Source: a virus (taxonomy: Duplodnaviria; Heunggongvirae; Uroviricota; Caudoviricetes). From it: a DNA stretch of 23,006 nt. The translations under genes and the position numbers were made by a program. The notes below the pieces were generated by a model. It made no database searches, had not been told where the DNA came from, and worked only from the letters and a program-made list of their open reading frames with translations. Position 1 is the stretch's first letter, and each line of letters begins with the position of its first letter. Location: IMG/VR virus record IMGVR_UViG_2617270967_000008; one strand, written 5' to 3'. This document shows positions 16,761-23,006 of this stretch, piece after piece.

Positions 16761-17582
16761 CTATCGCGTTACCCTCTTTAACTGCCGCTCCGCCCATGCC
16801 TCTTCAATGTCAAACCGAACCACCAACGTATCGTAAAAGCGTTTCACTGATTTTTTCCACGTATCAAGCGTGATAGCACTCGTCACTTTGCATATGGCAT
16901 TAAATGCCTCCGTTGATGGTAGTCTTTCACAGCCACGACCACCACAACGCTGGCAGTCTCTGATAACAGGCATACCACGTTTTACCGACTCTTCACGATG
17001 AATGGCGACACCACGCCCACGGCAATCCTTACAGGCGGTGGAAACCTCACCCTTTCCGCCACACTCCGGACAGGCAACTTTTACCACCTCCCTGACTTTT
17101 TTCCATTCTTCCCAGTAAGACGGATACACACCTTTCGTACACTTTGCCCATACCGGCGGCTTACCATCCGGATACTGGACCTTGTTTGTAAAAACTACGC
17201 TTTCAATAAATTTTTCCCCATAGCAACAAGGGCACTGCTTTTTACTCGCTGCGCTGCGGGCATAATCCTCAAAAGCGTACGAAGCCATAATGCGCATCAC
17301 TACCGGTTTTATTTCTGCCGGGAGTTTTCTTAACGCCGCCACGCGATCACACCGACTGAGTGCATATTCTGTCAGCAATTCTGTTGCCCGCTCTCTGTCA
17401 TTCATACTAATGCCCATTTTACCAAGGAACGCAGAAAACCCCATCTCAGCCCGATTCTGTGTCATGCCCTGCGCGGCCATCACATCAGTGATACTCAGCG
17501 CATCTTTCGACGTTGAGGCCGATGCATCAGTCAGGCCGGGGGATTTTGGGGAGTAGTATTTCGGTAAATCTTCCAGTTTCAT
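16761..17582 (-). CDS. Q: Late-gene antiterminator Q (lambda Q family)
   Basis: Alignable to lambda Q at the N-terminus (YSPKSPGLTD...DVMAAQGM), zinc-binding cysteines, and C-terminus (TLDTWKKSVKRFYDTLVV...LKRVTR); 273 aa with insertions. Confidence 0.85.
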   Translation of the reverse strand: MKLEDLPKYYSPKSPGLTDASASTSKDALSITDVMAAQGMTQNRAEMGFSAFLGKMGISMNDRERATELLTEYALSRCDRVAALRKLPAEIKPVVMRIMASYAFEDYARSAASKKQCPCCYGEKFIESVVFTNKVQYPDGKPPVWAKCTKGVYPSYWEEWKKVREVVKVACPECGGKGEVSTACKDCRGRGVAIHREESVKRGMPVIRDCQRCGGRGCERLPSTEAFNAICKVTSAITLDTWKKSVKRFYDTLVVRFDIEEAWAERQLKRVTR

Positions 17583-17956
17583 TTTTTGACCTGCCCTTCA
17601 AGCATTATGGGGTAAATCTTCACCCCCAGACGTCCACCAGATACTGGCTGACCACGAACGATATTGATTTCATCAAACTGCTCATCGTCCATTAACACTC
17701 CCGCATGCGTCAGCGCATCCAGCGGTGCTTTCAGGATATTGTCCAGGTCGCGACGACGCTTATCCGGAAGCTCTGCAATCACCTTTATCGCCAGCCTTCC
17801 GGACAGGCTTAATTTCAGCCGCTGCTGGCGAACAATAAGCGCCACAGCCCGGCGATAACGCTTTCCCTCCTCCGAGATAAAATATGTGCTGCCACGGCGT
17901 CGCCAGTAAGTGTTCACCGTCGGCGGGTAAGGTAAAACCAAATCTATGAGCATCAC
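17579..17956 (-). CDS. rusA: Holliday-junction resolvase RusA
   Basis: 125 aa; PDKRRRDLDNILKAPLDALTHAGVLMDDEQ matches the RusA catalytic core; 4-nt overlap with the Q start. Confidence 0.85.
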   Translation of the reverse strand: MMLIDLVLPYPPTVNTYWRRRGSTYFISEEGKRYRRAVALIVRQQRLKLSLSGRLAIKVIAELPDKRRRDLDNILKAPLDALTHAGVLMDDEQFDEINIVRGQPVSGGRLGVKIYPIMLEGQVKK

Positions 17957-17965
17957 TCACCTCTT

Positions 17966-19015
17966 TTACCCAAGCACGCCAGTTGCAAAGGCGTGATCAA
18001 GAAAACGAAAAATTAAATCAACCTGAGAACCATGCTTTTCTTCGAACGCCAGAGGATCCGCATGAAGCTCGTTGTGATGCTCCCGACACAGCGGTAGCGT
18101 GAAAATATCGTGAGATTTTGTCCCCATTCCGCCCTGACCATGACCAATCAGGTGATGGGGATCGTCGGCTGGCTTACCACAACACGCACACGGCTGTGTC
18201 TTCACCCAGCGTGTGTATTTCTCGTTAACCCAGCGGCGACGTTTAGGTCGTTTCATGAAAGATTCCGGAGACTCAGGATCAACGGCAATGCTGACCACCG
18301 TCTTTTCCTGTGGTGGGTTCTGTTGCTGGTGGGCGTGAGGCAGCGGCGCAAGATTTTTTGTGCGCTGTTTCAGTATGCTGGTGGCGGTCTGCTCTCCCGG
18401 TACGATGTCGCTTTCACGGTACATTGAGCGGATTTTTTCCGCACGCAACCCCAGCGAACGACGTAATACCGCTTCCGGTAGCGCGTCCGCCACCTGATTG
18501 CGGACCGCCCACCAGGATAATTCAGCCAGCGATAATTCCCGCTCCTGTGTGCCATTCATTGCGTGACGAATGACGTCAATCATCCATGCTGACAAGTTTT
18601 GGTGAGCAAGTTGCTCAAGTGATTCGGAGGTCTGGTCACGCAACTGGTTGTCGCAGTGCCAGCACAACACCATTGCGCCGGTACCATAACGGTGAATGAC
18701 GGTTTCGCTGTGATGATAATCGCCGTGTGGCCACTGGCAGGATTTAATATGGCGCAACAGCCAGTCAGACAATGCACCAGCACCACCAGCAGCACGAATC
18801 ACCCGTGCGTTACTGAAAAACGGCAGCAATGTTTTGTCTTCCACCAGCGGCTGGCGAACGGCAGGAACGACCCCGGACGGCAGATTACGCATGCTTTTCG
18901 GTTCCGGCTCCACCAGTACCCGGGTATTGTGGAATACCGGCATGGATTCACGGCCCGGCTTAACGATCACCAGCCCGAGTTCCGGTACCAGAACAGGTCG
19001 AAGTAATACTCGCAC
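17966..19015 (-). CDS. DUF968-type protein (YdfU-like) with C-terminal Cys/His-rich HNH-like motif
   Basis: 349 aa, the same length as K-12 Qin YdfU as I recall; C-terminal CACCGKP...HHLIGHGQGGMGTKSHD...CREHHNELH motif. Confidence 0.6.
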   Translation of the reverse strand: MRVLLRPVLVPELGLVIVKPGRESMPVFHNTRVLVEPEPKSMRNLPSGVVPAVRQPLVEDKTLLPFFSNARVIRAAGGAGALSDWLLRHIKSCQWPHGDYHHSETVIHRYGTGAMVLCWHCDNQLRDQTSESLEQLAHQNLSAWMIDVIRHAMNGTQERELSLAELSWWAVRNQVADALPEAVLRRSLGLRAEKIRSMYRESDIVPGEQTATSILKQRTKNLAPLPHAHQQQNPPQEKTVVSIAVDPESPESFMKRPKRRRWVNEKYTRWVKTQPCACCGKPADDPHHLIGHGQGGMGTKSHDIFTLPLCREHHNELHADPLAFEEKHGSQVDLIFRFLDHAFATGVLG

Positions 19016-20254: not shown

Positions 20255-20643
20255 GCCGCGCTTCCTTCTTGCTTATTAACGATTACACCGTCATATATTT
20301 CATTAAGGTGTCCCCTCAACTCCATGCGCCTTAATGCAGACAACATGTAATCGCATTCAACCTGCTTATTTCCAGTAAATGGCTTATCGTCAGGATCACC
20401 CCAACAGCAATTACCCTTGGGCCACCCATGTACTTTCCGTACTCTTCCGTTAACAACGTGAAGTAATCCCCAGCCAGGTGGTAAATCCTCAATTGAAATA
20501 ATTCCCGGCTCACTAATAAAGAATCTCCAGTCGCCCATGCCAAGAGAGGGATTTTTACGGAAACGCTTTTTTCTATCTGCCAACAAGTCAGCACGAGAAC
20601 ACTTCGCCTCTATCAGGCATGATGCTGAATTTCTGAATCCCAT
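20251..20643 (-). CDS. Hypothetical 130-aa protein (Cys/Trp-rich [14 protein letters not shown] segment)
   Basis: ORF coupled to the 114-aa gene; no recognised family. Confidence 0.4.
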
Positions 20644-20669
20644 AGCATCTGGTTGTTCTCCAGTACTGG

Positions 20670-21608
20670 TTACAGCAACAAAGCGGTCATGAAAGCAAAC
20701 CTTGAACCCGTTGCGCTTAAGGAACCTGTAACCAGTTCATCCCATTTTTCGCGAAGCTTTGACGGACTCATGATATTTTTTACCCAGAATGGATCCCGCT
20801 GCGCCCGACCAAACATTTCACAAATTTGTCTGTGAGTTCTGCCATCCAGCATCCGCATTGTGCGCACGTCGTTGGCCCATGCGGTCCAGTTGGGTTCTTT
20901 CGGTCGCGAAATCTCGCCATCATCGCTGGCGGCCTGCTCGTAAAGACTCACGATTCGTCCCCAGATCCACTGCGCACACGCCAAATCTTCCTGGTTGCCC
21001 CACTGGCGTTTTTTTGCACTGAACACAACCGCGTCAGGGTGTCGGGTTAAAAAATCCTGTTCAACCGTCTGCGGGTCCGGTTGCGAAGCTTCCGGACGAG
21101 AAGTGTTTTTATTCTCTGTAGTAATCTCTGTTGTATTCTCTGTAAGATCATCAGGCCATTTTGACCCGATGACATTGAGTCGTTTTGAACCAATGGAACG
21201 TGCCATTTTGGCCCCTTCCATCGTGTCATTCTGACCTGATGGAGCAGCGCATTTTGACCTGATGGATTCGCTCACTTTGCCACCATTTAAAAGCTCGCTC
21301 TCGTAATTAATCGTGTAAAAATTAGTCATATCACGCTTTGATTTATTGAGCTTTTCGCAACGCAAAAGCCCCAGCGTTTTCAGACTTGCAAATGCGCGTT
21401 TTAACGTTGACTCTGACCAGAACGGGAACTGCTCCAGCCATTGTTCTGTTGTGTTATAAATCCAGCGAACACCATCACATTCCATGCCGGAACCGGTATC
21501 TCTCAACCAGTAATGCAACTGCTGCAACACGATGGCTTCGTTCAGACCAATTTTCATCGCCAGCTGCGTGTTTATAACCAGCGGACGTTCAGCAAAAAGG
21601 AGCTTCAT
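20670..21608 (-). CDS. Putative phage replication-initiation / replisome-organizer protein
   Basis: N-terminal HTH-like region (LNEAIVLQQLHYWLRD...STLKRAFASLKTLGLL) and position upstream of the nin-like genes; start at ATG 21608 directly after a G9 tract. Family assignment is tentative. Confidence 0.5.
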   Translation of the reverse strand: MKLLFAERPLVINTQLAMKIGLNEAIVLQQLHYWLRDTGSGMECDGVRWIYNTTEQWLEQFPFWSESTLKRAFASLKTLGLLRCEKLNKSKRDMTNFYTINYESELLNGGKVSESIRSKCAAPSGQNDTMEGAKMARSIGSKRLNVIGSKWPDDLTENTTEITTENKNTSRPEASQPDPQTVEQDFLTRHPDAVVFSAKKRQWGNQEDLACAQWIWGRIVSLYEQAASDDGEISRPKEPNWTAWANDVRTMRMLDGRTHRQICEMFGRAQRDPFWVKNIMSPSKLREKWDELVTGSLSATGSRFAFMTALLL

Positions 21609-21617
21609 CCCCCCCCC
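21609..21617. repeat. Homopolymeric C9 (G9 on coding strand) tract abutting the replication-gene start codon
   Basis: Direct reading: nine consecutive C at 21609-21617; ATG at 21608..21606. Confidence 0.9.
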
Positions 21618-21628
21618 AGAACACGTTA

Positions 21629-21888
21629 TCAATGCGCCACCACGGCATTTCCCGCCGGACCACCACGATTCATCTGATCGAACAACACGATCGCTGCCGC
21701 AACAAACTCATCGATATCTTTCACCAGGCGCTCCCGTCGCTCGACAAGCTCCCGGTGATATTCCGAACTGTGGCTGCGCATTCGGGCCACCAGTGGAGGC
21801 GGCATTGCTTTTTCGATCGCCGGTAACAACGCCTGAATTTTTTTAACCGCATCAGGGGTGTCTTTTTCTACCCAGCGGAAAATTTTCG
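21629..21888 (-). pseudogene. 5'-truncated prophage gene (C-terminal ~66-86 codons) interrupted by the IS66-family insertion
   Basis: Open frame continues upstream of the track start with no stop until it enters the IS end near 21889; the stop overlaps the replication-gene region. Confidence 0.4.
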
Positions 21889-21972
21889 TAAGCGTAAAGC
21901 CAATGCCGTCTGTAACACCTGCTCCTTGCAGACTAAATTAGAGCTCCTTCTAAATTAGACGGAGTTCTATTG

Positions 21973-22407
21973 ATGGATAAACCTACAGACTGGCGCTCCG
22001 GAACCCGCCGGATATTTTCTAATGAATTTAAACTTCATATGGTTGAACTGGCTTCGAAACCAAATGCCAATGTTGCACAACTGGCCCGGGAACATGGCGT
22101 TGATAACAACCTGATTTTTAAATGGCTACGCCTCTGGCAAAGAGAAGGACGTATTTCTCGTAGAATGCCTCCAACTATTGTAGGCCCTACAGTATCACAA
22201 TCTTTTCCGGCCTCTCCGACTCTGGTTCCAGTGGAACTTATCGACACCCCGCGCTGTGCTACAGATGCTCCTGCTCCGGGGGCATTATCAGTTGCTTGTG
22301 CAGCTTCCTGCCATGTGGAATTCCATTACGGTAAAATGATGCTGGAAAATCCTTCACCAGAGCTGCTCACGGTGTTGATCCGTGAGCTGACCGGGAGGGG
22401 ACGATGA
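21973..22407 (+). CDS. tnpA: IS66-family accessory protein TnpA
   Basis: N-terminal ...RRIFSNEFKLHMVELASKPNANVAQLAREHGVDNNLIFKWLRLWQ HTH typical of IS66 orfA; ATG 21973 with GGAG upstream. Confidence 0.85.
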   Translation: MDKPTDWRSGTRRIFSNEFKLHMVELASKPNANVAQLAREHGVDNNLIFKWLRLWQREGRISRRMPPTIVGPTVSQSFPASPTLVPVELIDTPRCATDAPAPGALSVACAASCHVEFHYGKMMLENPSPELLTVLIRELTGRGR

Positions 22408-22754
22408 TTTCACTCCCATCAGGTACCCGTATCTGGCTCGTTGCCGGCGTTACTGATATGCGTAAATCCTTCAACGGTCTGGGGGAGCAGATACAGCATG
22501 TGCTGGATGATAACCCCTTCTCCGGTCACCTGTTTATCTTCCGTGGCCGACGGGGAGACACGATTAAAATCCTGTGGGCTGATGCTGATGGTCTGTGCCT
22601 GTTCACCAAACGCCTTGAGGAAGGTCAGTTTATCTGGCCTGCGGTGCGTGACGGTAAGATATCCATTACCCGCTCGCAACTGGCAATGCTCCTCGATAAG
22701 CTGGACTGGCGTCAGCCAAAAACATCCCGCCTTAACGCACTGACAATGTTGTAA
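22404..22754 (+). CDS. tnpB: IS66-family TnpB
   Basis: 116 aa, MISLPSGTRIWLVAGVTDMRKSFNGL...LFIFRGRRGDTIKILWADADGLCLFTKRLEEGQFIWP, characteristic IS66 orfB; overlaps the tnpA stop. Confidence 0.9.
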   Translation: MISLPSGTRIWLVAGVTDMRKSFNGLGEQIQHVLDDNPFSGHLFIFRGRRGDTIKILWADADGLCLFTKRLEEGQFIWPAVRDGKISITRSQLAMLLDKLDWRQPKTSRLNALTML

Positions 22755-22784
22755 AAAACGCCGGGCCGGATTATAAAAACGGCC

Positions 22785-23006
22785 ATGAGTCAGAAATACC
22801 TCATTCGCATCGCTGAGCTGGAAAGGCTGCTCTCTGAGCAGGCTGAAGCCCTCCGTCAGAAAGACCAGCAACTGAGTCTGGTTGAAGAGACGGAGGCCTT
22901 CCTGCGCTCTGCACTGGCACGTGCCGAAGAAAAGATCGAAGAAGATGAGCGAGAAATAGAGCATCTGCGGGCTCAGATAGAAAAACTGCGCCGGATGCTG
23001 TTCGGA
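22785..23006 (+). CDS. tnpC: IS66-family transposase TnpC, N-terminal 74 codons (3' end beyond window)
   Basis: Own translation MSQKYLIRIAELERLLSEQAEALRQKDQQLSLVEETEAFLRSALARAEEKIEEDEREIEHLRAQIEKLRRMLFG: the coiled-coil N-terminus typical of IS66 transposases. Confidence 0.8.
   Translation, partial: MSQKYLIRIAELERLLSEQAEALRQKDQQLSLVEETEAFLRSALARAEEKIEEDEREIEHLRAQIEKLRRMLFG

Follow-up and report, generated by a model that had tools for sequence, protein, structure and literature searches.

A run of nine consecutive guanines placed directly against the start codon of a viral replication gene raises the question of what such a homopolymer does there: whether it serves the gene as a ribosome-binding site, and whether changes in its length could switch the gene on and off. 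The run lies within a 23,006-nt stretch of DNA, hereafter the window, whose + strand reads ...gagcttCATCCCCCCCCCagaacacgttatca... around the tract (...GAGCTTCATCCCCCCCCCAGAACACGTTATCAATG... over a longer stretch), so that the coding strand, which is the - strand, reads TGA TAA CGTGTTCT GGGGGGGGG ATG AAG CTC across the junction. The initial annotation described a G9 run on the coding strand that abuts an ATG and follows the stop codon of a truncated upstream ORF by 11 nt, and its coordinates and description prove right (Table 1): the upstream stop is the TGA at 21631..21629, after which come 11 nt, the G9 and the ATG, and the truncated ORF preserves the last 85 codons of a YdaT-family gene that encodes 141 aa. 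The 11-nt spacer starts on a further in-frame stop (TAA), and it contains the hexamer GTGTTC, which is common to a sister junction described below. The G9 tract is the sole G/C run longer than 6 nt in the window. A G/C run of at least nine is nevertheless expected in ~20% of 23-kb windows simulated under a first-order Markov model; composition alone therefore gives the tract no significance, which resides instead in its position and its behavior in relatives. A G-quadruplex was considered and rejected as impossible, since four runs are required and the tract is a single G9 with no other G-run of at least three within the 20 nt between ydaT and O. A scan of 21300-21960 for sigma-70 promoters and intrinsic terminators found none, and searching both strands of 20600-22000 against Rfam returned a single spurious lncRNA match, below threshold; the junction thus yielded no promoter, terminator or Rfam RNA, and no Shine-Dalgarno (SD) sequence besides the G-run itself. 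An oop-like antisense unit or terminator at the ydaT-O junction is not supported.

Table 1. Features of the ydaT-O junction and its surroundings in the window, with the evidence for each
Feature	Position	Strand	Evidence
O-like replication-initiator ORF, 312 aa	20670..21608	-	phrog_391, E=1e-95
Origin-like array within O gene	21110..21264	.	repeat analysis
ATG start codon, O-like replication-initiator gene	21606..21608 (21608..21606)	-	PGAP start in relatives
G9 homopolymer (C9 on + strand)	21609..21617	-	sequence; variable in relatives; anti-SD pairing energies
11-nt spacer TAACGTGTTCT, ydaT stop to G9 tract	21618..21628	-	sequence
ydaT-family (cII-like) 3' fragment, codons 57-141 + TGA	21629..21887	-	Pfam YdaT_toxin PF06254; phrog_163 CII-like
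IS66-family element, running off window end	21888..23006	+	terminal repeat GTAAGCG, orfA, TnpB_IS66 orfB

The downstream ORF, first taken for a putative replication gene, can be specified as a replication initiator. It matches PHROG 391, 'replication initiation O-like', and in all RefSeq relatives PGAP names the gene 'phage replication protein O'; the identity came from PHROGs, searches of the protein against Pfam and NCBIfam having returned no match. The gene holds four iterons of ~20 nt at 21152-21264 (CATCAGGTCAAAATG core), most of them spaced by 23 nt, and beside these a tandem of three AT-rich 12-nt repeats at 21110-21145. O-like homology, iterons inside the gene and a DnaC-like loader gene that follows in intact relatives are the features of an O-type initiator, and in those relatives the operon runs from a cro-like gene (ydaS) through a cII-like gene (ydaT) and a 20-nt gap to O and the loader. 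PGAP sets the start of O at the ATG touching the tract in every relative retrieved (L001, L002, L003, L199-L206). A TTG at 21632, which overlaps the ydaT TGA, was weighed as an alternative start and rejected, being in frame only for tracts of G9 or G12 and unused by PGAP. Because PGAP places the start at the ATG, and the TTG falls out of frame in the G10, G11 and G14 alleles, the ATG directly after the tract is the O start codon. The ORF that the TTG would open (21629-21634 region, - strand) joins the O frame only at tract lengths divisible by three, then adding the residues LITCSGGG, and is probably meaningless.

Within the window the replication module has been damaged on both sides of the junction. 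The match to intact ydaT begins at window 21887, directly beside the IS66-family element, which carries a GTAAGCG terminal repeat from 21888, orfA at 21970-22407 (HTH_Tnp_1) and orfB at 22404-22754 (TnpB_IS66). The element cuts the 5' side of ydaT and parts O from its upstream promoter; the insertion is in ydaT codon 56, and a third ORF of the element begins at ~22786. At the other end of the module, residues 1-293 of O are identical to an intact 321-aa protein and the last 19 codons are foreign. Relative to the SHP24 prophage, 3,682 bp (L001 5160-8841) have been cleanly deleted; the joint, at 20729/20730, has 2 nt of microhomology, and the loss takes in the O C-terminus, the DnaC-like loader, and the DUF1627, DUF977, DUF4406 and ead/Ea22-like genes. 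The identical layout of insertion and deletion, with G9, occurs in the independent IMG/VR contig IMGVR_UViG_2619619131_000007 (L008; 99.97% over 2.9 kb). Since ydaT is cut by the IS66-family element, and the O C-terminus and loader are deleted, the replication module of the window is non-functional, and the tract here a relic in a defective prophage, for which the question of its effect is moot. The whole window maps onto 32-35 kb of related prophages, and hence carries several deletions. Lambdoid late-regulation neighbors are encoded on its - strand at 16761-19015, comprising a DUF968/HNH-like gene (17966-19015), RusA (17579-17956) and antiterminator Q (16761-17582).

The behavior of the tract was followed in ~88 related junctions with near-identical flanks, drawn from 57 complete E. 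coli genomes, 26 IMG/VR contigs and 5 metagenome contigs. A 159-nt probe found partial matches in 107 of 5,426 complete E. coli genomes, 57 of which have a match that spans the junction; a ydaT-O junction of the window's type is uncommon. Match spans in the complete genomes give total tract length only, and eight records were read as sequence, while the search patterns used for IMG/VR and metagenome contigs admitted any tract length. Two scans of GTDB species representatives gave nothing or three unrelated chance matches, and none of the isolated phages in INPHARED has this junction, only the overlap-type O start.

Eleven alleles were recorded. They comprise the pure runs G9 (the modal allele), G10, G11, G12 and G14, and the interrupted alleles G6AGG, G5AG4, G8AG4, G10AGG, G5AAG3 and G5TG3, either sequenced or inferred. 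Five alleles occur among 16 sequences with identical flanks of 150 + 150 nt, and G9, G10 and G11 were each found with 0/1,130 flanking mismatches; the chance that two random mutations in 1,139 nt both strike the 9-nt tract is ~6e-5. G10 comes from three independent sources (AST19, L013 and L020) and G11 from two (ZH48/49 and L018), with one record each for G12, from FDAARGOS_1077, and G14, from the IMG isolate that yielded UViG_2606217110; SHP24 has G9. The interrupted alleles that were sampled repeatedly have one length each: G5AG4 is identical in 8/8 sequences across three flank haplotypes, and the O55:H7 group has a uniform span of +4, for which G8AG4 was inferred from L014 and L016. Interrupted alleles in general resemble point mutants of pure G9, G10 and G13, and the pure parents that may be supposed for them imply true length variation. 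These data suggest the usual microsatellite pattern, in which pure runs slip and interrupted runs do not. The G8 and G10 sub-runs inside G8AG4 and G10AGG are constant within lineages (4-9 independent assemblies), which argues against very high rates of slippage. The initial annotation had proposed that the tract is prone to slippage and that G8/G9/G10 variants be sought in related genomes, with invariant length counting against it. Length does vary, from G9 to G14 with interrupted forms besides, on identical flanks, and no G8 was seen. High-frequency switching fares less well, as G9 is a stable modal allele in diverse, unrelated strains and the interrupted alleles seen repeatedly are each of a single length.

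The variation has a lower limit. No allele shorter than 9 nt was found in the 26 IMG/VR contigs, the 5 metagenome contigs or the 57 complete E. coli genomes; all 57 complete-genome spans are +0 to +4 relative to G9, and the distance between TTCT (or TTAT/TTCC) and the ATG is always at least 9 nt. Moreover, every allele of this junction, read as sequence, holds at least five G's at its 5' end. Like a phase-variable locus, the junction has an uninterrupted tract of a length at which slippage can occur (about 7-9 nt or more) and length polymorphism on near-identical sequences. The ON/OFF phase switch that had been envisaged would also call for OFF alleles, and there are none among the ~88 junctions, in which all tracts are at least 9 nt and predicted to be translationally competent. 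The tract is thus a hypervariable homopolymer in a translation-initiation region that lacks the OFF alleles of a phase-variable locus. A second length-variable G tract was observed in related prophages, reading CCGGCGTTCTGT-G13-TTGGTGAAAATA vs G9 (L120 ~1006-1030, on the same contig as L194; L196). It is non-coding, lies between ydfA-like and repressor genes ~1.5 kb upstream of O, is absent from the window, and returned no meaningful Rfam match (L120).

A sister junction, in which a closely related ydaT precedes a different phrog_391 initiator, bears on how the tract may be read. It has in common with the window's type the ydaT 3' end, the GTGTTC and a G-run equally far from the start, and reads TAAAAGCACGGTGTTC-GGGGG-TTTT-ATG. 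Among 80 ydaT loci that extend through the junction, all ~56 of the sister type place a T spacer after G5 (range G4-G7). Rare variants move the boundary between the two blocks, giving G6T3 and G7T2 (total 9) or G4T6 (total 10), e.g. at L028 1565-1590 (ydaT loci L039-L108), which suggests a constraint on the length of the block rather than on the identity of the spacer. The sister junctions have the same phrog_391 family downstream as the window's type, but differ from it in having a T4 spacer, a G-run of just 4-7 nt and a nearly fixed total of 9-10 nt. We infer that the sister junction is a plain G5 SD with a 4-nt spacer, and that G9 is the same block with a spacer made of G's. In the commonest context of O homologs there is no G-run at all, and a longer ydaT runs past the O start, which is preceded by GGATGGAATT; the tract is therefore a property of one mosaic junction and not of the O family.

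Pairing energies are consistent with such an SD. Against the 16S rRNA tail (ACCUCCUUA), GGGGG scores -7.8 kcal/mol and GGAGG -8.7 kcal/mol (ViennaRNA duplexfold); seven G's reach -10.9 kcal/mol through added G-U pairs, and G9 attains up to -10.9 kcal/mol. For all natural alleles the scores run from -7.4 to -10.9 kcal/mol; of the four sister alleles, G4T6 is at -5.7 kcal/mol and the other three fall between -7.6 and -7.8 kcal/mol. Complementarity to the 16S tail is thus combined with an element kept at a homologous position in relatives, as expected of an SD. Spacing in G9 is tight in relation to a functional range of ~4-9 nt, since the 5'-most register alone leaves 4 nt (an aligned spacing of 3, with a small penalty), the stronger registers leaving 0-2 nt; longer alleles reach a spacing of 5-6 nt. 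To relate tract length to initiation, pairing energies were combined with a spacing penalty following the Salis 2009 RBS model, in our own implementation, which was checked on canonical SDs and is a simplified form rather than the full RBS Calculator. With G9 set to 1 and hybridization and spacing terms only, G8 or shorter is predicted to be ~11-fold lower, G10 ~2-fold higher and G12-G14 ~5-fold higher, and when an mRNA-unfolding term is added the gains of the long alleles shrink to about 1.2-2.4-fold. Predicted initiation differs by no more than ~5-fold among the natural alleles, all of which stay clear of the low class formed by G8 and shorter tracts. The model thereby reproduces the observed lower bound of 9, and predicts a modest rheostat among natural alleles rather than a switch. 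The registers with 0-2 nt of spacing, in which pairing is strongest, could trap 30S subunits unproductively. The tract may moreover be weak as an SD, because an 18-nt poly-G leader is a poor RBS according to the legend of Fig. S5 in a published study (PMC3310771).

The reading that we favor, with a probability of roughly 60%, is that the G-run constitutes the translation-initiation region of O, acting as SD and spacer at once, with a hypervariable but bounded length and no ON/OFF switch. A G-rich SD surrogate, as the initial annotation had it, is the most economical account of a junction that offers no other SD, whose GGGGG pairs at the energy given above, and whose sister has a G5 and a T4 spacer in its place. 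Forming G-C and G-U pairs, the 5' five to seven G's would bind CCUCC(UU) in the 3' tail of 16S rRNA, and the leftover 3' G's (four in G9) would form the SD-to-AUG spacer; ribosomes ending ydaT 20 nt upstream may in addition re-initiate at the O start. Because SD and spacer would be one homopolymer, replication slippage would change how many pairing registers there are and also how wide the spacing can become. Expansions to G10-G14 would be tolerated; after a contraction below 9, a class of allele that went unseen, a 5-bp SD would be followed by a spacer of less than 4 nt. G-to-A/T substitutions would go together with a fixed length, as in the repeatedly sampled alleles. The outcome would be a length polymorphism bounded from below, with O translation tuned modestly at most among natural alleles.

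The same variability could reflect a true contingency locus, in which slippage yields sub-populations with different O levels, including a reversible G9-to-G8 'low' state, and the prophage hedges between being replication-competent and silent after induction. Pure tracts do vary on identical backgrounds, G9 stands one deletion away from the predicted ~11-fold drop, and related prophages have their second variable G tract (G9 vs G13) in the immunity region. The missing G8-or-shorter alleles among ~88 sequences and the stability of G9 as the modal allele across unrelated strains nonetheless make this reading unlikely, and selection for mutability would predict the reverse of the fixed interruptions in many lineages. 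In mismatch-repair-proficient E. coli, moreover, a G9 slips far less often than classic phase-variable loci do. We hold it just as doubtful that, in a subset of E. coli lambdoid prophages, a slippage-prone poly-G serving as SD and spacer is a heritable and reversible dial on initiator translation, with G9 one deletion from a ~10-fold 'low' state. Were that so, the junction would be a translational contingency locus that controls the prophage's competence to replicate, in a species commonly supposed to lack simple-sequence-repeat phase variation.

It is less probable still that the variation is mostly artefact, the biological tract being fixed at G9 (or at a few alleles) and G10-G14 being homopolymer sequencing or assembly errors. 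Homopolymers are error hot spots, as the initial annotation warned of this one, and for single records the warning may hold: G12 and G14 have one apiece, and the G11 records ZH48 and ZH49 stem from a single study and are, the tract apart, identical to a G9 record. It cannot account for the G-to-A/T alleles, as G6AGG, G5AG4, G8AG4, G10AGG and G5TG3 cannot be length-calling errors; G10 and G11 do not depend on one source each, and the identical calling of the G8 and G10 sub-runs across 4-9 independent assemblies indicates that errors are not rampant. We regard as similarly improbable that the tract acts without SD pairing, be it through a hairpin with codons 3-5 (CUCCUUUUU) that hides the start until translation of ydaT opens it, as a recombination linker of lambdoid modules, or by transcriptional slippage. 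The centroid fold does pair eight G's with CUCCUUUU, leaving AUGAAG in the loop, but it is no stabler than shuffled sequence (z = +0.82; 162/200 shuffles fold as well), and the pyrimidine run is coding-constrained, its Leu-Leu-Phe also occurring in O genes without the tract. For the linker speak the homology breakpoints of mosaic relatives, which coincide exactly with the ydaT stop and the O ATG, and the sister junction, which shares GTGTTC and the G-run and diverges immediately after; 5-9 nt is, however, too short for efficient homologous exchange. As for transcriptional slippage, there is no evidence here of RNA polymerase slipping on G runs.

Tracts of poly-G are known from loci such as Moraxella uspA1 and Treponema pallidum tpr. 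The poly-T tract of Helicobacter pylori sabA acts as a rheostat (PMC4081817), and for the 7G tract in the 5'UTR of Mycobacterium tuberculosis espR a translational effect via RBS accessibility has been proposed (PMC11898584). The junction described here resembles homopolymeric-tract rheostats in having a mononucleotide run just upstream of the gene, length polymorphism between near-identical strains, no change of frame and a predicted graded effect. It differs from them in that the tract is a putative SD and spacer touching the start codon, whereas the known tracts are located within promoters or well upstream in the UTR, and in that the gene is an E. coli prophage replication initiator rather than a surface or virulence factor, with no OFF alleles among ~88. 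The junction can also be set beside the cII-O junction of lambda, ydaT being considered the counterpart of cII in Rac-type prophages (PMC5917428). Both have the gene order cro-like, cII-like, O-like and loader, with a short untranslated gap before O, and in both the initiator gene holds its own iterons and AT-rich origin. Unlike in lambda, the initiator here belongs to phrog_391 and is not lambda O itself, the loader is DnaC-like and not lambda P, and the scan of 21300-21960 found no oop-like antisense promoter or terminator. Lambda is not known to have a homopolymer at its cII-O junction.

For the window itself, the value of the tract is mainly diagnostic of a decayed replication module. More generally, it is a handy marker of one ydaT-O mosaic junction and a hazard for annotation and assembly, and length differences between records are no strain markers without read support. 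If tract length does tune O synthesis, the junction would be a rare instance of simple-repeat control at the RBS itself, and rare as well for its host, E. coli, and for its target, a replication gene of a phage; slippage mutation would be linked to prophage replication and to the outcome of induction.
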